Of a stretch of 43,677 nt of DNA, positions 21,110-36,207 are shown one piece after another. Location of the stretch: positions 1-43,677 of IMG/VR virus record IMGVR_UViG_3300044109_000018; one strand, 5' to 3'. The number at the start of each line of letters is the position of its first letter. The first letter of the stretch is position 1. The DNA comes from a virus (taxonomy: Duplodnaviria > Caudoviricetes). A program made the position numbers and the translations under genes. Under the pieces are notes generated by a model. That model was not told the DNA's origin. It saw only the letters and a program-made list of their open reading frames with translations, and searched no databases.

Positions 21110-22252
21110 TCACCCGCCTTTGAACCCGCCGGCCGCCCGGACCGCCGCGATCGCCGCCGCGCGGATGGGGTCGATCGCGCGCTTCCCGTAGCGCTGCGCC
21201 GTCGCCGGACTCTTCTGCCGCATCAGGAGTTGGACGACGGGCAGGTTCCCACCGGTCTTCTCGTAGACCTCGGTCGCCCACGAATGCCGGAGGTCGTACG
21301 GCCGGATGCCTGACAGCTCGAGCTTACTGCACGCCCGCTGAAACGACGCCCACATCGCCGAGTGGGAGAATCCGCCCAGCCCGCCGGCTTCGACCAGGGC
21401 GCCGAGCGCCGCCGCCCCTTCCTCAGTCAGCGGTTGCGCGGTGCCTTTCGTGCCTTTCCCCTTCCGGCGTCCGGCAATCCAGACCCACGGGAGCGGTGCG
21501 TCCAGGTGCAGATCGCTCGAGCCGACGCGCTTCAGCTCGCCGTGTGACAGGCCGACGTAGGCGATCACCCGCAAGCGGAGCTTCGTCAGCGAGATCGTCG
21601 GTCGGGTGCCTGACCCGTCCGGCCGGCCGCGATCGGGAAGATGTGACAGCAGCGCTTCGACCACATCGTACGGCAGGCCGCGCGCGTCCCCGTCCGGTTC
21701 CTCCGCTTCACTGATCTCCCGGACCGGATTGTCCGCTCGCCGGCCGTCGAGGACCGTGTAGAGGTTCTCGAGCGCGCGCAGCCGGTTGTTGACCTGGCTC
21801 GCGGAGAGCGGCACCGCGAGCTCCACCCACCGGGCGCCGTGCCGATCGATCCCGTCCGTGCGCCAGCGGCGCATGACGCGCTTCGGGCCGATCGTGAGCC
21901 AGCGATCGCGCACGGCCGCAATCTCCCACGGCTTGATCGTTGCCCTGGCCCTGGCCCCAAACTCCGCGACCCAGAGCCCGATGTGCCGCGTGCGTTCCTG
22001 CCGGTCGGGCATCGTGAGGATCGTCGTCAGGTAGTCCTGCGCATCCTTCGCGAACGTGCCGGCCGTGGCGGGCGGCGTGACGATCTTCAGCGCGTCGCGC
22101 GTTGCCTTGCGGTCGCGCTGCATGGCTTTCGGATCCGTGTCGAGCGGGTACGGCGTGTAGACGGGCCGATGCCCGGTCACCCGGACGCACGTCTGCCAGC
22201 CGGCGCCGTGCCGGCGGATCCCACGCCAGAGGGGTTTGGCTTTCTGGAGCAT
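21110..22252 (-). CDS. int: Tyrosine integrase with divergent catalytic motifs (380 aa)
   Basis: LSASQVNNRLRALENLY, RPYDLRHSWAT, VVQLLM...TAQRY; next to attP. Confidence 0.9.
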   Translation of the reverse strand: MLQKAKPLWRGIRRHGAGWQTCVRVTGHRPVYTPYPLDTDPKAMQRDRKATRDALKIVTPPATAGTFAKDAQDYLTTILTMPDRQERTRHIGLWVAEFGARARATIKPWEIAAVRDRWLTIGPKRVMRRWRTDGIDRHGARWVELAVPLSASQVNNRLRALENLYTVLDGRRADNPVREISEAEEPDGDARGLPYDVVEALLSHLPDRGRPDGSGTRPTISLTKLRLRVIAYVGLSHGELKRVGSSDLHLDAPLPWVWIAGRRKGKGTKGTAQPLTEEGAAALGALVEAGGLGGFSHSAMWASFQRACSKLELSGIRPYDLRHSWATEVYEKTGGNLPVVQLLMRQKSPATAQRYGKRAIDPIRAAAIAAVRAAGGFKGG

Positions 22253-24822: not shown

Positions 24823-24874
24823 TTCAGGGTCAGGTGGACAGGACGGATGTGGAGCCGTCGAGCCAATGTCGAGT

Positions 24875-24951
24875 ATACAACGGGTAGTAGGCACCGCCTC
24901 GATCGAGCGCGATGTATTGGGGCGAAAATTCCAAAACACAAAATGTAGTGG
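24875..24951. promoter_or_regulatory. Tandem NrdR-box-like sites
   Basis: ACACAAAATGTAGTGG (24936) matches acaCwAtATaTwGtgt at 13/16; weaker copies at 24907 and 24875. Confidence 0.45.
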
Positions 24952-24973
24952 TGCCGGCGTTGGTGCTGCCGAG

Positions 24974-25759
24974 ATGCAACCGACCGGTGACGTCACAGCT
25001 GGCCGGTTACATCACGGCGCTAACGCGATCGGCTACGCGCGCGTCAGCACAGAGGAACAGGCGGAGGACGGCTACTCGCTCGACGTGCAGACGGCGCGGA
25101 TTCGCGCGATGGCTGTGGCGCAGGGCGTGACGCTCGCGGAGGTGATTCTCGACCCGGGCGAATCGGCGAAGTCTCTCAATCGTCCCGGTATGGCGCGACT
25201 GCTCGCGCTCGTGGACGCGCGCGCGGTCGACACCGTCATCATCGCGAAGTTGGACCGCCTGACCCGGTCGCTCGTTGACCTGGCCGCCTTACTCCAACGC
25301 TTCGATCGCCGCGGCGTGGCGCTCGTCAGCGTGGCGGAGACCCTCGATACAGGCTCGGCGATGGGCCGCATGATGCTGCACTTCATCGTCCTGCTGTCGC
25401 AGTGGGAGCGGGAGGTGATCGGCGAGCGCACGCGGGAGGCGCTGCAGTACAAACGGGCCAACTGGGAACGCGTCGGCACGATCCCGTTCGGGTATCGGCT
25501 CGCCGAGGACGGCGTCCACCTTGAGGCGGACGAGGACGAGCAGGCCCTCGTCGCGCAGCTCCGGGCGCTCAGGGCTCAAGGTCGCAGTCTCCGCCAGATC
25601 GCCGACGCGTTGAATGCCGCTGGCTGGACCACGCGGCGCGGCACGGCTTGGCGGTTCGAGTACGTCGCGCGCGTGCTGGCTTCCGCGCTCCGGATGGCCA
25701 AGGCTCGGCTCGAACCGCAGCAACCGCGACTTTTTGAAGAGGGCCGGAAACATGGGTGA
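24974..25759 (+). CDS. Serine recombinase, resolvase + recombinase domain (about 261 aa)
   Basis: GYARVSTEEQ, SAKSLNRPG, KLDRLTRS, ERE.IGERT, PFGY, SLRQIADALN. Confidence 0.92.
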   Translation: MQPTGDVTAGRLHHGANAIGYARVSTEEQAEDGYSLDVQTARIRAMAVAQGVTLAEVILDPGESAKSLNRPGMARLLALVDARAVDTVIIAKLDRLTRSLVDLAALLQRFDRRGVALVSVAETLDTGSAMGRMMLHFIVLLSQWEREVIGERTREALQYKRANWERVGTIPFGYRLAEDGVHLEADEDEQALVAQLRALRAQGRSLRQIADALNAAGWTTRRGTAWRFEYVARVLASALRMAKARLEPQQPRLFEEGRKHG

Positions 25760-26598: not shown

Positions 26599-26840
26599 GG
26601 ATCGTCACCGCGATGTTGATCAGTCGCGTCGTCCCGGGCTGGCCGGACCAAGTCATCCTCGACAGCGTGCCGCTCGGGAAAGAGTACCGGATTGATCTCG
26701 ATTCAAGGCGGGTCGCGACGCTCAAGAACCGTGAGCATCCGGATTGGGGCACGATGCAGGTCGAAGCCGTGGTGGAGATCGACGACGGGTTCCCGTTACC
26801 GGTGGTGTGTCTCCGGATTGACGCCGATGGCCGCGATTGA
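26595..26840 (+). CDS. Hypothetical protein (81 aa)
   Basis: GTGA overlap. Confidence 0.55.
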   Translation: MRIVTAMLISRVVPGWPDQVILDSVPLGKEYRIDLDSRRVATLKNREHPDWGTMQVEAVVEIDDGFPLPVVCLRIDADGRD

Positions 26841-26851
26841 AAAGGAAGGTT

Positions 26852-27295
26852 ATGCCACGCGGTAAACACTCCGGTCATCTAAAGGGCCAGCAGAATCCGC
26901 AATGGAAGGGCGGCCGGACGATCGCGTCGAGCGGCTATGTCCTCATTCGTGTCGGCAAGGATCATCATCTTGCGGACGTCCGCGGCTACGCCTACGAACA
27001 CCGGCTGGTCGCTGAACAGAAGCTCGGACGTCGGCTGCTCAAAGGCGAGATCCCGCACCACGTCAACGGCATCAAGACTGATAACCGGCCGGAGAACATC
27101 GACGTCGTTGAGAGTCTATTTGCTCACCGCGTGAAGCATCGAACGGTGAAGGCGAGCCTTCGGCAACGTCCACACGAATCGAACGAATTCGTCGCGTGCG
27201 CGTGCGGCTGCGGGGAGATGTTCGCCAAATTCGATTCTGACGGCAGGCCGCGGCGGTTCATCACTGGCCACAACACGGCGGTCCGGCATGGCTGA
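26852..27295 (+). CDS. HNH endonuclease (147 aa)
   Basis: NPQWKGGR..GYV..YEHRLVAE..LGR..HHVNGIKTDNRPEN; CACGCG tail. Confidence 0.9.
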   Translation: MPRGKHSGHLKGQQNPQWKGGRTIASSGYVLIRVGKDHHLADVRGYAYEHRLVAEQKLGRRLLKGEIPHHVNGIKTDNRPENIDVVESLFAHRVKHRTVKASLRQRPHESNEFVACACGCGEMFAKFDSDGRPRRFITGHNTAVRHG

Positions 27296-30185
27296 CCATT
27301 CCAAGATCGAATGGTGCGATGCCACCTGGAATCCTGTCAGGGGGTGTACGAAAGTCTCGCCCGGATGCAGCCGATGTTATGCCGAGGTCTTCGCGGAACG
27401 CTTCCGCGGGGTCAAGGGCCATCCGTACGAACAGGGATTCGACCTGCGCCTCGTGCCGGAGAAGCTCGCCGAGCCGTTGACGTGGACGAAGCCGCGCCGG
27501 GTCTTCGTGAACTCAATGAGCGATCTGTTTCAGGAGGGCGTGCCGTTTCCGTTCGTCGCCGCCGTCTTCGCGGTGATGGCCGCCTGCCCGCGCCACACGT
27601 TCCAGGTGCTCACCAAACGACCGGACCAGATGCGCGCCTTCATGACGTGGGTGAACGCGCCAGAGGGCGCGGAGACGTTCACGGAGCTGTACGGCGCGAA
27701 GGCCGGCCAGCCCGTTACGCTGCTGCGGATGCGGCGAGTCGACGTCGACCTCGCGGGCGCGGTTCACGGGGCCACCGCCGAGGGCGTGGACCTCGACGCG
27801 TGTCTGCACAACATGGGAGTCTGGCCGCCGCCGAACGTCTGGCTGGGCGTCTCGGTCGAAAGTCAGCTCTGGGCGGAGACGCGGATCCCGGTGCTCCTGC
27901 AGACGCCGGCGGCCGTGCGGTTCATCAGCGCGGAGCCGTTGCTTGGGCTGGTGTTCGTCAAGCACTGGTTACCCCTGTCCGATTCCACACTCCCGCGTCT
28001 CGATTGGGTGATCGTCGGCGGCGAGAGCGGGCCCGGCGCGCGGCCGTTCGATCTCGCGTGGGCGCGCCGCATCGTCCAACAGTGCCAAGCGGCGGGCGTG
28101 CCGGTGTTTGTAAAGGGACTTATATACTTGACTCCCTATCCTAGTCATTTAAGGAACCGCGTGTCCATTTGCACCCAGCCGATGATGCGCAGCGGGAGCC
28201 GTTCACCGTCTACGGGTGTTTTGGCGGGTTTTAGACGGCGTAGTAGCCTGTGGAGGCTCCGCGTTAACGCCGCGTCTCTTCCCGGGTTCTTCTGGCGCCT
28301 CAAGCGAACCAATGGACACCCCCTCGATAAAATCGTGAGCGGTCTTCGGGTCTTGCAAGCCTGCTTTGTGTGCGCTACGCCACGCGCCACAACGTTCGCA
28401 GGCGTCGAAGTCGCGCTCACTCATCGGCGTTTCTCTCCGCAACGAACTCGATGCAACCGCATTCCCGTGACGTGTCTGCGAACGCCATGCACTGACCTCC
28501 GCTCGGGTGACGGTTCCGCGTATGTCCGCATCGGCACAACTGCTCCAGAATCGTCTTCCGGCGCTTCCGCTGAACCGCTGGCTTGCTTCTGGCCTTCGGG
28601 CGGTATTTCAGAACGGTATCCGCGATGGCGTCGAGCGGTTTCATTGTTTCGCCTCCGGCCCGTGCGGTCCATCGTGGCCTTCTGGCAGGGCACACCGATA
28701 GGTCACGTCGAACGGCTCATCGCGTGGCGGCGAAGTTTGCGGCACTGGATACCGACCATCGCATCGCCACTCCGCGTGCCGTGTTGGTTCACGCATCAGA
28801 CGATTAGCATCGCGCTTCAACCTGGCGAGTCGCTCACGGGACAACCAGATCGCTGCTTCGATCAGGGCCTGTTCTCTGGTCAAATCCCCACGATTCGCCA
28901 AGGTGACAGCCTGATGCAGCACAGGGCAGTTCAGCGATTCCAATTGCATGTCTTCCCAAGTCATCTAGTTACCCTCCGGCTTCGCGATCAGGGCCGCGTA
29001 AGTGAGCCGCTTCAGGGCCATACCGTCCACAAAACTGTCGAGCCGGTCAAACGTCGGCCGCTTCACGTTGCCGTCGTTCAGACGGAACGCGAATTCGTCC
29101 ACATAGCGGCCGGTGTGCTTCGGGGTGATGTGGTGGTAAACGCCGATGATGCCGCGCTTCAGGACCGCGAACGCGCTCTCCACGCTGTTCGTGGTGACGT
29201 CCTTGCGGCGGTACTGGCGCAATCCGTGGTTGATGGCATCGTGCCGGTAGAACAGCCCGTCAAGGTCCGCGTAGACCGGCGCTTCGTCGGTATGGAGCTG
29301 GGAGCCGAGTTCCACGTTGCTGTAGATGGCGTGGCGGATCGCCTCCGTCGTCGGGTTCTCCATCGTCATCGCCTTCAGACGTCCGCCGCGCTCGCGCATC
29401 CCGAGGACCGGCGTCTTGCCGATAGGCCCGCGGCCGAGGTTCAGCTTCTTGTCCTTGTGCTTGTTCCGCTCCTTGCCGCCGATGTACGTCTCATCAATTT
29501 CTACGATGCCCTGCAATTTCTTCAGGTCTTTGCCGCAGGCTTCGCGCAACCGGTGCAGCAGGAACCACGCCGACTTCTGGGTCAGTCCGATTTCCTTCGA
29601 CAGTTGCAGGCTGGAGATGCCCTTGCGGGCCGTGACGAGCAGGTACATCGCGTAGAGCCACTTGTGGAGCGGAATGTGCGACCGCTCCATCACCGTGCCG
29701 GTGCGGACAGTGAAGTCCTCCGCGCACTGGTTACAGCGGTAGTACCCGGCCTTGCGCGCCGTGATGCGCTCGCCCAACCCGCACACCGGGCAGACGACGC
29801 CGTTCGGCCAGAGGCGGGATTCGAGGTAGAGCCGCGCCGATTCCTGATCGGGGAATCGGTCGAAAAGCTGGAACGTGCTTATCGCGGACTTGGTCGCATT
29901 CGCTTTCGGCATGAGGTAATTCTATGTCAAACGGTCAAGGGAGTCAAGTATATAATTCCCTTTGTAAAGCAGCTCGGGGCGCGACCGTTCGGTCTCTGCA
30001 CGCCGGAGTGTGGGATTGGCCCGCACGGAATGACGTTTCGTAATCGGAAGGGCGGCGATCCGTCCGAGTGGCCGGAAGATCTACGCGTCCGGGAGTTTCC
30101 AACCGGCGTCGCGTCTTCCCCCTCGCCGCTCGCCGCGTCGGATCCCCATGCCCCGGATCCGGGAACGCCAGGCACGCGCGCATGA
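27288..30185 (+). CDS. DUF5131 / phage Gp37-Gp68 family protein (347 aa native) with in-frame IS insertion
   Basis: SKIEWCDATWNPVRGCTKVSPGCSRCYAE, FVNSMSDLF, WVIVGGESG, GVPVFVK|QLG split by the IS, KGGDPSEWPEDLRVREFP. Confidence 0.9.
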   Translation: MADHSKIEWCDATWNPVRGCTKVSPGCSRCYAEVFAERFRGVKGHPYEQGFDLRLVPEKLAEPLTWTKPRRVFVNSMSDLFQEGVPFPFVAAVFAVMAACPRHTFQVLTKRPDQMRAFMTWVNAPEGAETFTELYGAKAGQPVTLLRMRRVDVDLAGAVHGATAEGVDLDACLHNMGVWPPPNVWLGVSVESQLWAETRIPVLLQTPAAVRFISAEPLLGLVFVKHWLPLSDSTLPRLDWVIVGGESGPGARPFDLAWARRIVQQCQAAGVPVFVKGLIYLTPYPSHLRNRVSICTQPMMRSGSRSPSTGVLAGFRRRSSLWRLRVNAASLPGFFWRLKRTNGHPLDKIVSGLRVLQACFVCATPRATTFAGVEVALTHRRFSPQRTRCNRIPVTCLRTPCTDLRSGDGSAYVRIGTTAPESSSGASAEPLACFWPSGGISERYPRWRRAVSLFRLRPVRSIVAFWQGTPIGHVERLIAWRRSLRHWIPTIASPLRVPCWFTHQTISIALQPGESLTGQPDRCFDQGLFSGQIPTIRQGDSLMQHRAVQRFQLHVFPSHLVTLRLRDQGRVSEPLQGHTVHKTVEPVKRRPLHVAVVQTEREFVHIAAGVLRGDVVVNADDAALQDRERALHAVRGDVLAAVLAQSVVDGIVPVEQPVKVRVDRRFVGMELGAEFHVAVDGVADRLRRRVLHRHRLQTSAALAHPEDRRLADRPAAEVQLLVLVLVPLLAADVRLINFYDALQFLQVFAAGFAQPVQQEPRRLLGQSDFLRQLQAGDALAGRDEQVHRVEPLVERNVRPLHHRAGADSEVLRALVTAVVPGLARRDALAQPAHRADDAVRPEAGFEVEPRRFLIGESVEKLERAYRGLGRIRFRHEVILCQTVKGVKYIIPFVKQLGARPFGLCTPECGIGPHGMTFRNRKGGDPSEWPEDLRVREFPTGVASSPSPLAASDPHAPDPGTPGTRA
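28203..28424 (-). CDS. IS passenger, CxxCG..H protein (73 aa)
   Basis: DACERCGAWRSAH...HDF; GGAG SD. Confidence 0.5.
   Translation of the reverse strand: MSERDFDACERCGAWRSAHKAGLQDPKTAHDFIEGVSIGSLEAPEEPGKRRGVNAEPPQATTPSKTRQNTRRR
28417..28644 (-). CDS. IS passenger, basic Cys/His protein (75 aa)
   Basis: LDAIADTVLKYRPK; CRCGH...H...C...CGC; GGAGG SD, ATGA overlap. Confidence 0.65.
   Translation of the reverse strand: MKPLDAIADTVLKYRPKARSKPAVQRKRRKTILEQLCRCGHTRNRHPSGGQCMAFADTSRECGCIEFVAERNADE
28641..28964 (-). CDS. IS passenger (107 aa)
   Basis: Starts right after transposase stop; CALPEGHDGPH motif. Confidence 0.65.
   Translation of the reverse strand: MTWEDMQLESLNCPVLHQAVTLANRGDLTREQALIEAAIWLSRERLARLKRDANRLMREPTRHAEWRCDGRYPVPQTSPPRDEPFDVTYRCALPEGHDGPHGPEAKQ
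28965..29912 (-). CDS. IS1595-family DDE transposase (315 aa)
   Basis: RWPNGVVCPVCG..CNQC zinc ribbon; KGISSLQL; EIDETYIGG, HTDE, TTNSVES; promoter TTGACT-17-TAGAAT in the IR. Confidence 0.95.
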   Translation of the reverse strand: MPKANATKSAISTFQLFDRFPDQESARLYLESRLWPNGVVCPVCGLGERITARKAGYYRCNQCAEDFTVRTGTVMERSHIPLHKWLYAMYLLVTARKGISSLQLSKEIGLTQKSAWFLLHRLREACGKDLKKLQGIVEIDETYIGGKERNKHKDKKLNLGRGPIGKTPVLGMRERGGRLKAMTMENPTTEAIRHAIYSNVELGSQLHTDEAPVYADLDGLFYRHDAINHGLRQYRRKDVTTNSVESAFAVLKRGIIGVYHHITPKHTGRYVDEFAFRLNDGNVKRPTFDRLDSFVDGMALKRLTYAALIAKPEGN

Positions 30186-30346
30186 AGGTCTTCTTCTGGG
30201 CGTGCGCCGTCGTCTTCGTCGGAGGCCTCGTGGTGGATCTCCTCGTGGCGCGTCGACGACGCCGGAAGATCCGGCAGCAAGACCTGAGCCCGGGGTGGAT
30301 TAACGAAAACCTCTACGGTCGAGGGAAGCGCGGTGACGACGAGTAG
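30182..30346 (+). CDS. Small single-TM protein (54 aa)
   Basis: Hydrophobic N-terminus followed by Arg run. Confidence 0.5.
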   Translation: MKVFFWACAVVFVGGLVVDLLVARRRRRKIRQQDLSPGWINENLYGRGKRGDDE

Positions 30347-30361
30347 TCTGGACGTCGTGCC

Positions 30362-31069
30362 GTGAGCGGTCGCGACTACGCCTCCGTGCCGGAGCGCATC
30401 ACCTGGACCACAGGGTTCCGCGTGCCAACTGACAAGCTAGTGCTTTGCGCGTTGTCGACGTTCGCGAATTTTCAGACCGGCGAGGGGGCACAGCCGGCGA
30501 TCGCGACGTTGGCCGCACGCGCAGGACTCTCGAGAAGCACCGTACAACGGGCGTTGCACCGCCTGGAAGTCGACCAGTGGATCGCGGTGACGGCGCGCCG
30601 GCATCGCCGGCCGACGACGTATCGGATCTGCGTGGAACGGCTCGCGGAGAATTGGGTGGGGGCGAAAGTCGTGAAACGTTTGCGCGTCACGGGTGACGCG
30701 CAAGAACCTGTGGAAAACGTGTTGAAATCCGATTCCTTGCGCGTCACTGGTGATTCGTTGCGCGTCACAGGTGACGCGCAAGAACCCGTTTTGAGCGTCA
30801 CCGGTGACGCGCCATCCCCTGTACGTACTGATCCCCTGTACGGATCCCCAGTACGAAGAGAAGAGCCGTCGCTGCGCGCCGGTGTTCATTACGCCGGAAC
30901 GACGACGAAGAGCGCAGAGGCGAAAGGTCAGCCCTATCAACAAACGTTCGGACCCCTCGATGTGAGCGCGGAGGACGAGAAGACGGCCCAGTGGAAGGCC
31001 CATTGGACGCGGATGAAAGAGATCACGGCGTCCGCGCTGAACCAAAAACGAGACCGGAAACAGGGATGA
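30362..31069 (+). CDS. Replication initiator, HTH_36-like (235 aa)
   Basis: KLVLCAL..PAIATLAARAGLSRSTVQRALHRLE..WI; internal iterons. Confidence 0.85.
   Translation: MSGRDYASVPERITWTTGFRVPTDKLVLCALSTFANFQTGEGAQPAIATLAARAGLSRSTVQRALHRLEVDQWIAVTARRHRRPTTYRICVERLAENWVGAKVVKRLRVTGDAQEPVENVLKSDSLRVTGDSLRVTGDAQEPVLSVTGDAPSPVRTDPLYGSPVRREEPSLRAGVHYAGTTTKSAEAKGQPYQQTFGPLDVSAEDEKTAQWKAHWTRMKEITASALNQKRDRKQG
30680..30855 (+). repeat. Putative replication origin: four palindromic iterons plus three ATCCCCWGTACG repeats
   Basis: TTGCGCGTCAC-NG-GTGACGCGCAA at 30680, 30737 (partial), 30758, 30791 (variant). Confidence 0.8.
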
Positions 31070-31334
31070 CCACGATCTCTCTCGGGTTCGAAGTCGCTAC
31101 CGGCGCGCCCGTCGCGATCCCACTGAAGCACCTGGCCATCACCGGGCAGACCCAGGAGGCCGGGAAGACGACCGCGCTCGAGGCGCTGATCACGCGCTCC
31201 GGGTTGCGGGCGCTGACGTTCGTGACGAAACGCGGGGAAGGGCATTCGTCGACGGGTTCTTCATCCGCGCGGGGAACGCGTTCGTCCTGGCGCCGGGCGT
31301 GAAGGTCAGCGAACGCGAGCTCCAGGTGTCGTGA
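31066..31334 (+). pseudogene. Internally deleted HerA/DUF87-like ATPase remnant
   Basis: HLAITGQTQEAGKTT Walker A variant, then out-of-frame join to a plausible C-terminus (DGFFIRAGNAFVLAPGVKVSERELQVS). Confidence 0.6.
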
Positions 31335-32149
31335 TGCCCGACAAGTTCCGCGCCGGGAAACGCCTGTGGAGCAAGGCCGACGATGCCGCGATGCGTCGGA
31401 CCTATCCGCATACGTCGACGGCGGTGCTCGCGCGGCAGTTGCGACGGACCTACTCGGCGATCTGCGCGCGGGCCAAGCTGTTGGGTCTGCACAAGAGCGC
31501 CGCCTATCTCGCCAGTCCTGACGCGTGTCGGCTGCGGCGAGGGGATCACGTCGGCGCCCGATTCAGATTTCAGAAGGGCCACGTACCGGCGAATAAGGGC
31601 CTGCGACGGCCTGGCTGGTCAGCGGGGCGCATGGGGGAGACGCAATTCAAGAAGGGCGTGGCGCCGAGGAACAACATGCCGATCGGCAGCACGCGGCTCA
31701 TTGAGGGATACGTCTTTCGGAAGGTCTCCGACGTGGCCCATGTGGCCTATACGGTGAACTGGAAAGCTGAGCACGTCCTGATTTGGGAACGCGCGCACGG
31801 TCCGGTGCCCCCGGGGCACGTGCTCGTCTTTCGAAACCGCGATCGCACCGACGTACGGCTCGACAATCTCGAACGCATCACGCGCCGCGAGTTGATGGCG
31901 CGCAACACCGTCCACACCTTGCCGAAGCCGCCGCGGTGGATGAGCAGCTCGCCCGTCGGCGTCCTGGACCCCGGGGCCCCACCCCCAGGACTGAGGCCCA
32001 ACGTGAGACGGCTGACGCCTGGGGCGGGACCGTCACGATCCCAACGGCGGCCTCGGTGGCGGCGACGGCGCCGAACAGCTCGTGGTGGACGACGTGCACG
32101 TCCCGCGAGGCCTTCGACGCAGCGGTGGCCAGGGAACGCGCGCGGATGA
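31334..32149 (+). CDS. HNH endonuclease, C-terminus apparently truncated and fused
   Basis: FQKGHVPANKG, TQFKKG, HVLIWERAHGPVPPGH..FRNRDRTD..LDNL; natural-looking sequence ends near LPKP (about 31930). Confidence 0.8.
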   Translation: MPDKFRAGKRLWSKADDAAMRRTYPHTSTAVLARQLRRTYSAICARAKLLGLHKSAAYLASPDACRLRRGDHVGARFRFQKGHVPANKGLRRPGWSAGRMGETQFKKGVAPRNNMPIGSTRLIEGYVFRKVSDVAHVAYTVNWKAEHVLIWERAHGPVPPGHVLVFRNRDRTDVRLDNLERITRRELMARNTVHTLPKPPRWMSSSPVGVLDPGAPPPGLRPNVRRLTPGAGPSRSQRRPRWRRRRRTARGGRRARPARPSTQRWPGNARG

Positions 32150-32259: not shown

Positions 32260-32538
32260 TTACGCCCTGACCACGCTCTCCGCCCGCGGCCCTTTCGGCG
32301 CCTCGGTGGGGAGAAAGTGGACCGTCGATCCGACGTCGAGTCGATCGAACTCCGGCGCCGCGCTTCGATGGAAGAAGTACTCCCGATCATCAGGCCCCTG
32401 AATGAACCCGAAGCCTTTGTCGGCCAGCAACCGGACGACGGTCCCGGTGAGCGTCACGCGGTGCACCTTTGTGCGGGCGGCCGCGGCGCGCGTCTCGGCA
32501 AAGACACGGGCCAGGCGGACGCGGGCGGGTCGGGCCAT
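32260..32538 (-). CDS. Cold-shock domain protein (start may be GTG at 32457)
   Basis: DKGFGFI (RNP1), EYFFHRS (RNP2), KGPRAE.V. Confidence 0.9.
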   Translation of the reverse strand: MARPARVRLARVFAETRAAAARTKVHRVTLTGTVVRLLADKGFGFIQGPDDREYFFHRSAAPEFDRLDVGSTVHFLPTEAPKGPRAESVVRA

Positions 32539-34172: not shown

Positions 34173-34664
34173 GTGGGAAATCAGAACAGCGGGCGGCGCC
34201 CGCAGCCGACGGCGCTCAAAGTCCTCCGAGGGAATCCTGGCAAGCGGAAACTGAACGCGCTCGAGCCGATCCCGCCGGCCGGCGCCGTGCGACAGCCCAC
34301 GCTGTCGACGACGGCCGGCCACGTCTGGGATCGTCTCGCGCCGATCGCGATCGCGATGCGCACGTTGACCGCCGCGGACGTGACGGCGTTCGCGACGCTG
34401 TGCGAGCTGCAGGCCACGCTCGAATGCGCCTGGGCCCAGAAGAATCCACCGCCGAAGACTGGTGATCGGAAGGCAGACCGCGAGGCGAGGTACGCGCACG
34501 CGTCGACCCTGGCCGACGCGATCAAGACCGAGAAGGACTTCGCGCCGATCGTCCGCCAGTATTACGCGCTCTTCGGGCTCGAGCCGGTGAGCCGCGCCAA
34601 GATCCAGGTCCCGGAGCCGGCCAAGACGCCGGTAGTCAGTAAATGGGCCGGTGAGCTGAAGTGA
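34173..34664 (+). CDS. terS: Terminase small subunit, P27 family (163 aa)
   Basis: GRRPQPTALKVLRGNPGKR...FGLEPVSRAKI. Confidence 0.92.
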   Translation: MGNQNSGRRPQPTALKVLRGNPGKRKLNALEPIPPAGAVRQPTLSTTAGHVWDRLAPIAIAMRTLTAADVTAFATLCELQATLECAWAQKNPPPKTGDRKADREARYAHASTLADAIKTEKDFAPIVRQYYALFGLEPVSRAKIQVPEPAKTPVVSKWAGELK

Positions 34665-35557
34665 AGGAGTCCGGCTCCGTGCGCGCCGTGCGCCTGATCA
34701 ATCAGCTCACGCACACGGCCGGTCCGTTCGCGCGGCAGCCGTTCGCCCTGCGGCGGTGGCAGCGGACGATTCTCCGGCGCCTCTTCTCGACGCGGAAAGA
34801 CGGGCTCCGGATCTACCGGACGTGCCTGCTGATGCTGCCGCGGAAGAACGGCAAGACCGAGCTCGCCGCAGCGATCGCGATCTATTGCCTGCTCTTCGAC
34901 CATGAGATCGGCGGGGAGATCTACTGCGCCGCGGCGGACAAAGAACAGGCCTCGAAGGTCTTCTTCGCGATGGTCGCGATGTTGCGCCACGATCCCGAGC
35001 TCCTCGCGCAGGTCGAGATCCTCGAGTCGCAGCGGCGCATCGTCCACCGGGCGAGCGGGAGCTTCTGCCGGGCGATCTCGGCCGAGGCCTACACGGCGCA
35101 TTCGTTCAACGCGTCCGTCGTCATCTACGACGAGCTCCACGCCGCGGCGAACCGGGATCTGTGGGACGTGCTCGCGACCAGCCAGGGCGCCCGCGCGCAA
35201 CCGCTGATGATTGCGATCTCCACGGCCGGCTTCGATCGCCATTCGATTCTCTGGGAGCTCTACTCCCACGCCCAGAAGGTCAAAGAGAACCCCGCGCTCG
35301 ACCCGACGTTCCTGCCGATTCTCTTCGAAGCGCCGATCGGCGCCGACTGGACCGACGAGCGGGTCTGGAAGCAGGCCAACCCCGCGCTCGGGGACTTCCG
35401 CAGTCTCGAGGAGATGCGCACGATGGCCGCCCGCGCGCAGGAAATCCCCGCCCAGGAGATGACCTTCCGCCGGCTGTACCTGAATCAGTGGACGGAGAGC
35501 GCCGAGCGCTGGATCTCGTTGGCCGCGTGGGACGCGTGCTCGGTGGTGGCCGCATGA
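34661..35557 (+). CDS. terL: Terminase large subunit, ATPase part (298 aa)
   Basis: PRKNGKT Walker A, IYDELH Walker B, ISTAG motif III, WKQANPALG, FRRLYLNQW. Confidence 0.92.
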   Translation: MKESGSVRAVRLINQLTHTAGPFARQPFALRRWQRTILRRLFSTRKDGLRIYRTCLLMLPRKNGKTELAAAIAIYCLLFDHEIGGEIYCAAADKEQASKVFFAMVAMLRHDPELLAQVEILESQRRIVHRASGSFCRAISAEAYTAHSFNASVVIYDELHAAANRDLWDVLATSQGARAQPLMIAISTAGFDRHSILWELYSHAQKVKENPALDPTFLPILFEAPIGADWTDERVWKQANPALGDFRSLEEMRTMAARAQEIPAQEMTFRRLYLNQWTESAERWISLAAWDACSVVAA

Positions 35558-36207
35558 CGCGGGCCGAGTACCGCGCGCGGTTGAAGGGCCGGCCTTGTTA
35601 CGTCGGGCTGGACCTCTCGAGCACGAAGGATCTGACCGCGCTCGTGGGGACGTTCCCCGATGACGAGGGCCACGGCTTCGACGTGCTCCCGGAGTTTTTC
35701 GTCCCCCAGGCAAACATCCTCGAGCGCGTGACGCGGGACCGCGTGCCGTACGACCAGTGGGTCCGGGACGGGTTCCTGAACGCGACCCCAGGGAACGTCA
35801 TCGATTCGGAGGCCGTGCGGCGGACGCTCAACGCGTGGGCGCTCGAGTTCGATCTGCGCGAAGTGGCTTATGACCCCTGGAACGCGACCGACCTGGTCAT
35901 CCGGCTCCAGGAGCAGGACGGGCTCGTGTGTGTCCCGATCCGGCAGGGGTTCCGGTCCCTCTCGGCGCCGACCAAAGCGCTCGAGACGGCGATCCTGTCG
36001 AAGACCCTGCGGCATGACGGGCACCCGATCCTGCGCTGGTGCATCGGGAACATCGTGGTCGAGCTCGACGCGGCGGGGAACTACAAGCTGTCGAAGGCCG
36101 TGAGCACGGAGCGGATCGACGGCGCGTCCGCGCTGGTCAACGCGATGGACCGGATGGGCCGCCACAGCGACGCGCCCGCCGAGGATCCCGTCCTGGTGTC
36201 CGCATGA
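35554..36207 (+). CDS. terL: Terminase large subunit, nuclease part (217 aa)
   Basis: CYVGLDLSSTKDLTA, YDPWNA, HDGHPILRW, RIDG..A; own ATG in ATGA overlap. Confidence 0.92.
   Translation: MTRAEYRARLKGRPCYVGLDLSSTKDLTALVGTFPDDEGHGFDVLPEFFVPQANILERVTRDRVPYDQWVRDGFLNATPGNVIDSEAVRRTLNAWALEFDLREVAYDPWNATDLVIRLQEQDGLVCVPIRQGFRSLSAPTKALETAILSKTLRHDGHPILRWCIGNIVVELDAAGNYKLSKAVSTERIDGASALVNAMDRMGRHSDAPAEDPVLVSA

Follow-up and report, generated by a model that had tools for sequence, protein, structure and literature searches.

Why does an insertion sequence (IS) that interrupts a phage gene leave the reading frame of that gene open from one end of the element to the other? The question is raised by virus record IMGVR_UViG_3300044109_000018, the 43,677 nucleotides of which were analysed in full and are referred to here as the window. 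An IS1595-family element of 1846 bp with passenger genes (28115–29960, minus strand) is inserted there into a DUF5131 gene, and the plus-strand frame that crosses it contains no stop codon. Insertion sequences are a classic cause of polar mutations, and polarity is poorly tolerated in phage operons. The stop-free antisense frame is very probably under selection. Judged from the sequences, the trait is real and family-wide and is apparently undescribed so far for IS1595, and a plausible mechanism can be proposed for it. The in-frame fusion with the host gene is the least important part of the finding.

The open frame in the window

The stop-free frame spans the entire element (28116–29960, plus strand), has 615 codons, and is without a Pfam match. 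The host frame has no stops inside the element, against 6 to 24 in each of the other five. The preliminary description of the window had proposed that the element and an 8-bp target duplication add up to 1854 bp, or 618 codons, inserted antisense; that translation regains the native C-terminus in a protein of 965 residues; and that the transposase and two passengers are in codon register with the host frame, with a further passenger out of register. All of this holds. The interrupted open reading frame (ORF) extends over 27288–30185 and encodes 965 residues, and the return to the native C-terminus is confirmed by the frame count and by the tails of homologues. Excision of the element in silico yields a DUF5131 protein of 347 residues, the tail of which, FVKQLG...KGGDPSEWPEDLRVREFP, is the native C-terminus as in homologues such as those of loci L244, L251, L272, and L277. 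Past the FVK/FFK-Q motif the sequence continues in all 80 of the 80 viral DUF5131 homologues examined, by a median of 63 residues, and the ending KGGDP.EWPEDLRVREFP is common to several viral homologues.

A stop-free frame is not common by chance in this element: when synonymous codons were redrawn 3000 times from the codon usage of the phage, the mean was 4.7 stops and the chance of zero stops 0.005. The caveat that openness is partly to be expected fits the transposase part of this copy, which alone is unremarkable (probability of zero stops, P0, of 0.40), but not the relatives, which are open far beyond the expectation from their GC content. The entry repeat of this copy has TAC-TTG in place of TAG-ATG, and ribosomes translating the host gene would thus pass directly into the element; since the length of the element fits, they would end at the native DUF5131 stop, coupled to the next gene. 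Any gene hit antisense in frame 1 by this element would be rejoined, which would apply to about one in six intragenic hits. The in-frame landing in DUF5131 is likely to be partly luck, and the 965-residue fusion protein is probably without activity; the rejoined frame may or may not be the reason why this single copy survived. For annotation, such insertions are a source of long false fusion ORFs, of which the 965-residue ORF is an example.

Stop-codon avoidance in related elements

The codons TTA, CTA, and TCA are read as stops on the opposite strand. Their use was compared in relatives from 240 loci, which are the best 80 of each of three scans and not all relatives. Together with the window, these loci gave 214 intact transposase matches, reduced to 161 by the removal of near-copies; 128 of them have both terminal repeats, and 120 elements were retained after eight longer than 2.8 kb had been dropped. 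The eight, all from genome contigs, contain 13–56 stops each, and dropping them favours selection on the frame in the element-level counts, not in the transposase counts. A second set came from three scans with repeat patterns, which gave 304 loci; a transposase was matched at 136 of them, 71 elements were complete, and the 26 that were new and non-redundant form the set. The null was formed by 230 flanking ORFs, called by a crude rule and matched for the GC content of third codon positions (GC3).

None of the three codons occurs in 101 of the 161 transposases, compared with 17.1 expected at matched GC3 (maximum of 32 in 20,000 simulations), or in 19 of the 26 transposases of the second set (3.7 expected), which bears out the suggestion that related copies keep the antisense frame open. 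They are the three most depleted codons of the 161 transposases, at 0.36–0.40 of expectation, and low values extend to AGA (0.44) and CGA (0.58). The best of 455 control codon trios has an excess of zeros of 34 vs 5.2, far below that of TTA/CTA/TCA. The avoidance persists at GC3 0.65–0.70 (0.42 vs 1.53 per 100, with zero in 22 of 37), with the other A-ending codons near expectation. The trio counts are bimodal. Transposases without the three codons are more common in viral records than in genome contigs (28/35 vs 23/48 at GC3 0.6–0.8, p = 0.003). Eight distant plasmid IS1595 genes, taken from among the top matches, fit the null, with 29 codons observed, 31 expected, and one gene at zero. Open and closed copies are mixed on a quick tree (33 changes vs 40 when shuffled), which does not show a single origin; the mixture fits an old trait that decayed repeatedly, without showing that it did. 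The trait is lacking in seven copies of one 1692-bp relative on a Nitrospirales chromosome (L116–L122): the frame contains 13 stops, and the copies have entered genes in each of the three frames. Near-open copies are carried by Sphingopyxis indica DS15 (L162) and Novosphingobium marinum DSM 29043 (L157).

The openness extends beyond the transposase. At least 80% of the length is open in 57 of the 120 elements and in 15 of the 26. The 120 elements were classed by the transposase alone, and the rest of each element was then compared. Passengers in register with the transposase have 0.22 stops per 100 codons in the open class vs 3.69 in the other, and register-2 passengers 1.46 vs 5.08, where control genes have 3.29. 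Outside the transposase, the values at matched GC are 1.48 and 3.01. In-register codons make up 7183 of 11,559 passenger codons in open elements vs 4178 of 13,121 in the others. A Pfam match was obtained for 7 of 78 passengers scanned, and real methylases and a PAPS-reductase-like gene are among the passengers of the relatives. In several relatives (L020, L024, L041, L056, L226, and others), an ORF of 42–48 codons overlaps the transposase stop at the right end and often ends on a TAA 8 bases from that end, tiling the sense strand to the very end. Different elements lie among similar kinds of genes in different records, portal and methylase genes for L065 and L150 and an HNH (phrog_1314) neighbourhood for L046 and L047.

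The frame is phased relative to the terminal repeats. It is frame 1 from the right, transposase-distal end in 68 of 120 elements (p = 1e-7) and 16 of 26. The TAA of the left repeat falls in this frame in just 20 of 120 (p = 3e-5) and 4 of 26, so that the frame tends to exit. Both p-values are too small, because relatives were counted as if independent of one another, a concern that is eased by the second set and by the mixture on the tree. At position 13, the right end has ATG or TTG in 86 of 120 elements. An ATG at this position is found at the right end only in 34 elements and at the left end only in 4, and TAGATG is found at 22 right ends vs 1 left end (13 vs 1 in the second set). In frame 2, the TGA of the repeat overlaps the position-13 start. 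Frame 0 stops within 45 bases at 83 of 120 right ends and at a comparable 70 of 120 left ends.

The same repeats bound 36 elements of 171–1340 bp that lack a transposase (e.g. L325, L388, L398, L399, L487, L491, L493, L513, and L616). Many have perfect 8-bp duplications, often around one DNA-methylase or PAPS-reductase-like gene, and they are non-autonomous cassettes. In L491, L493, and L513 the methylase ORFs begin at the position-13 ATG, and in L491 the methylase Pfam domain begins at residue 6, which argues that this ATG may be a working start for RNA arriving from outside. A further pair of the same inverted repeats (L357:2045-3222) encloses 1178 bp with only a TnpB gene (OrfB_IS605 and Cas12f1-like); its target duplication is unmatched.

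Role of the antisense frame

Polarity on untranslated RNA is an effect of Rho, which also keeps antisense transcription down (PMC12360218). We think it probable, though well short of certain, that the open lane has an anti-polarity role, in which translation would keep Rho from ending host transcripts inside the element and downstream phage genes would stay expressed. A host transcript would enter the right end and cross the element backwards. Ribosomes could read in through frame 1, as in the window; they could terminate and reinitiate within the repeat, at TAG-ATG or ATGA; or they could load at the GGGA-spacer-ATG start that the repeat itself provides. They would leave through the left end, and Rho would be kept off the host RNA. 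In the opposite orientation, the element's own coupled genes would provide the ribosome cover. In the window, the lane happens to meet and rejoin the DUF5131 frame; translation would run to the native stop, which shares bases with the following start codon ahead of the replication initiator. The preliminary description had suggested that a non-polar insertion may have been selected on account of an initiator farther along the same operon; the strand in question does carry an O-like initiator downstream, and non-polarity is likely a property of the element family. A fuller version, which we advance tentatively and with slightly less than even confidence, is that in a widespread, phage-resident IS1595 lineage the terminal repeat acts as a ribosome funnel, combining stop-restart for incoming frames with a start of its own and feeding an element-long, sequence-free frame; the transposon would thereby be transparent to Rho whichever way it is oriented, and the choice and register of passengers would be constrained. 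Such an element would be a natural, self-contained non-polar cassette, and the transposon could live in dense phage operons.

Several observations weigh against an anti-polarity role. Wholly stop-free elements are few (10/120 and 0/26), only TCA is a top depleted codon in the second set (CTA 0.57, TTA 0.59), and register-1 passengers show little avoidance (2.06 vs 2.54 in controls). Shine-Dalgarno-like pairing is equal at both ends, and its strength was rejected as a mark of the entry end. The avoidance at the far end exceeds what protection from Rho needs, as a stop 8 bases from the end would shield almost equally. Two-strand openness in the transposase-less derivatives (8 of 36) is not in excess over flanking DNA (8.4 expected). 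There is no antisense bias in orientation, with 22 antisense vs 38 sense co-directional insertions among 79 sites scored with a crude gene caller, and the difference in openness (16/22 antisense vs 19/38 sense) is not significant (p = 0.11). Matches to PHROGs confirm flank strands in both orientations, and most flank ORFs are without a match. In eight antisense sites, no clear link was found between the stop of the lane and the next host start.

The lack of an antisense bias would also suit a frame that is translated and selected for control of the element itself rather than of the host operon, with ribosomes stabilising an antisense RNA against the transposase or reading from a junction promoter in a circular intermediate. 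The left repeat of the window copy, read outward, contains TATAAT (29951–29956), MTnSag1, which belongs to IS1595, is reported to form a circular intermediate (PMC5704250), and translation itself has been suggested to matter in narnaviruses (PMC8316113, in part). We consider such self-control unlikely: with only 13 bases between the start and the end there is too little room for an internal promoter, boxes resembling a -10 element with at most one mismatch occur at the left end (26/120) and not at the right (1/120), no promoter-like site was found on the plus strand in 26800–30500, and the avoiding transposases are enriched in viral records. Neither an endless ORF around a circular intermediate nor ribosomal bypass via paired repeats is favoured, because the element lengths modulo 3 are split between two classes. 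A translationally silent insert, as the preliminary description had it, describes the window copy, which rejoins exactly, but not the element family; the strong form, in which the element is built as such an insert and in-frame hits give tolerated and selected fusions, we regard as very unlikely. The frame does avoid the exit TAA, and when genes are called less strictly, frame and length match at 4 of 7 open antisense intragenic sites (L131, L163, L185, and the window); L131, L163, and L185 have 1–2 stops near the entry and weak gene calls, and this result is weighed lightly. Insertions are not biased to in-frame sites as had been suggested: (length + 8) mod 3 is 43/42/36 over 121 sites, in-frame insertions are no more common than chance, and in-frame targeting was rejected. 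Only 3 of 10 stop-free elements would rejoin the host frame. Among 19 strictly intragenic sites, four have a multiple of three; among nine antisense ones, the host frame meets the open frame in two and rejoins in one, a copy with 20 stops, under a filter that the window itself fails with its low-scoring 3' tail. A TAG directly before the ATG blocks read-in at 28 of 120 right ends, and in the window the conserved FVK-QLG motif is split by 618 foreign residues. Most insertion sites are intergenic, and the targets are AT-rich 8-mers in either orientation.

A functional antisense protein is, in our estimate, marginally more doubtful still. It is favoured by four-fold-site changes that are slightly conservative in the antisense frame (mean BLOSUM -0.50 vs -0.58 in the permuted null, 3/1000), and nothing beyond this small shift supports it. 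Across 34 independent pairs, substitutions without effect on either protein (0.23) are no more common than antisense-altering ones (0.27–0.29; four-fold 0.40), antisense identity is 71% where transposase identity is 94%, the frame crosses unrelated passengers including methylases, and three such frames yielded no Pfam match. The antisense peptide drifts almost freely. The least probable account, now largely refuted, is an artefact of codon bias, in which high GC3 opens antisense frames and the window copy would be open by chance. Reverse ORFs driven by GC3 have been described (PMC13262655), some GC-rich genes of the window have only 0–1 TTA/CTA/TCA codons, the transposase of the window alone has the P0 given above, and the control ORFs were crudely called. 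This account is contradicted by the avoidance at GC3 0.65–0.70, by the bimodal counts, by stop-free elements at 51–55% GC (L232, L046, and L047), and by the distant IS1595 genes that fit the null, and GC explains neither the phasing nor the asymmetry of the ends.

The closest precedent for the antisense lane, here read as anti-polar, is hed of IS900 (IS110 family), a second ORF opposite the transposase that spans the entire element, needs expression from the host, and is of unknown function (PMC8141618, in part). The IS1595 lane works like hed but is not one. The same partial source describes hed as lacking its own ribosome-binding site and start, whereas a start appears within the IS1595 repeat, where real genes begin. 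Both orientations are used, the transposase is of the IS1595 type, and the frame crosses exchangeable passengers, unlike hed. IS900, going by the title of a 1997 report by Doran, is said to target translation initiation signals. Ambigrammatic narnaviruses keep a reverse frame in codon register open by avoiding UUA, CUA, and UCA (10.1101/761890, in part), and their translation rather than its product may matter (PMC8316113, same extent). The IS1595 lineage shares this codon signature, with avoidance beyond GC3 bias. Narnaviruses are eukaryotic RNA viruses with one gene per segment, whereas the element is DNA with several genes in different registers and would take its RNA from the host. The transporter IS elements MTnSag1/tISSag10 and tISCpe8 share with the window element a DDE transposase, repeats of about 25 bp, an 8-bp duplication, AT-rich targets, and passengers; the accessible text on them makes no mention of an open antisense frame (PMC5704250), and distant plasmid IS1595 genes lack the trait. 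No description of such a lane in IS1595 was found in the literature outside subscription papers. If the anti-polarity role is true, a codon-level cost over 1.5–2.5 kb would explain the persistence of IS elements in phages, element-spanning antisense ORFs such as hed would gain a testable role, and a bacterial model would exist for why ambigrammatic sequences occur.

Element anatomy and the surrounding phage genome

The element, which may belong to the ISNwi1 subgroup, is bounded by 23-bp terminal inverted repeats with one mismatch and by two copies of the 8-bp duplication TTTGTAAA (28107–28114 and 29961–29968). The right repeat (28115–28137, plus strand), where the open frame enters, contains GGGA, an AT-rich spacer, and TTG at 28128–28130 (ATG in many relatives), a candidate start whose use is suggested by the methylase genes of the transposase-less derivatives. 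The left repeat (29938–29960, minus strand) forms the exit, and its TAA is out of frame. The remaining features of the element are on the minus strand. The transposase (28965–29912, 315 residues) is without TTA, CTA, or TCA and matches PF12762 (E = 8e-44), the N-terminal zinc ribbon PF12760 (E = 1e-10), and NF033547 (189 bits, cut-off 75). A promoter-like TTGACT-17-TAGAAT (29919–29947) lies 6 nucleotides before its ATG, and its mRNA is likely leaderless. Three passenger ORFs, none with a family match, lie inside the repeats. Passenger 1 (28641–28964, 107 residues) is in register and starts directly after the transposase stop; passenger 2 (28417–28644, 75 residues) is basic, out of register, and overlaps passenger 1 by ATGA; passenger 3 (28203–28424, 73 residues) is in register and is the least certain gene call.

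Contigs from two runs, one of them possibly the source run, span the left junction and show no differences from the window (X1 record 1 and X2 record 12). Coverage of the right junction ends 3–4 bases past the duplication (X1 record 4 and X4 record 32), and this junction is not formally bridged. Among the contigs of four runs, no joint skips the element. There is no second copy in the record, no Rfam match for an RNA element or splicing ribozyme in 26800–30500 at E 0.5, and no relative above 60% identity in cultured phages or plasmids. Another contig (X1 record 7) is near-identical to 29967–30865 of the window, with three differences; upstream it runs into a different DUF5131 sequence that is not interrupted, reads TPVFV-KQLG, and lacks the AT-rich target. 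It is a related phage with an intact DUF5131 allele.

The gene content of the record, with integrase, portal, terminase, head, and tail genes, indicates a temperate phage. The DUF5131 gene, the ORF coupled to its stop, and the replication initiator are on the plus strand. The 5' part of the DUF5131 gene (27288–28114, 275 codons) matches PF07505 (E = 1e-80) and phrog_2045, and the stop of its native 3' part (29969–30185) overlaps the next ATG in ATGA. The 54-residue ORF coupled to it (30182–30346) is followed by the O-like initiator (30362–31069; phrog_391, E = 1e-10; HTH_36). Within the initiator gene, at 30680–30822, three 32-base repeats, each with a palindrome, are likely origin iterons. 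A short ORF with a Walker-A-like GQTQEAGKT and an early end (31066–31302) precedes an HNH gene with a low-complexity tail (31331–32149), and both look frameshifted or truncated. The large terminase subunit is split over two frames (34661–35557 and 35161–36207), which match residues 187–470 and 476–672 of the phrog_9 profile; a frameshift close to position 35550 divides them and is due either to misassembly or to decay of a prophage gene. The window also carries a tyrosine integrase and a serine recombinase (21110–22252 and 24866–25759), three HNH genes in all (at 26837, 31331, and 33468), and an ORF with a cold-shock domain (32260–32538).

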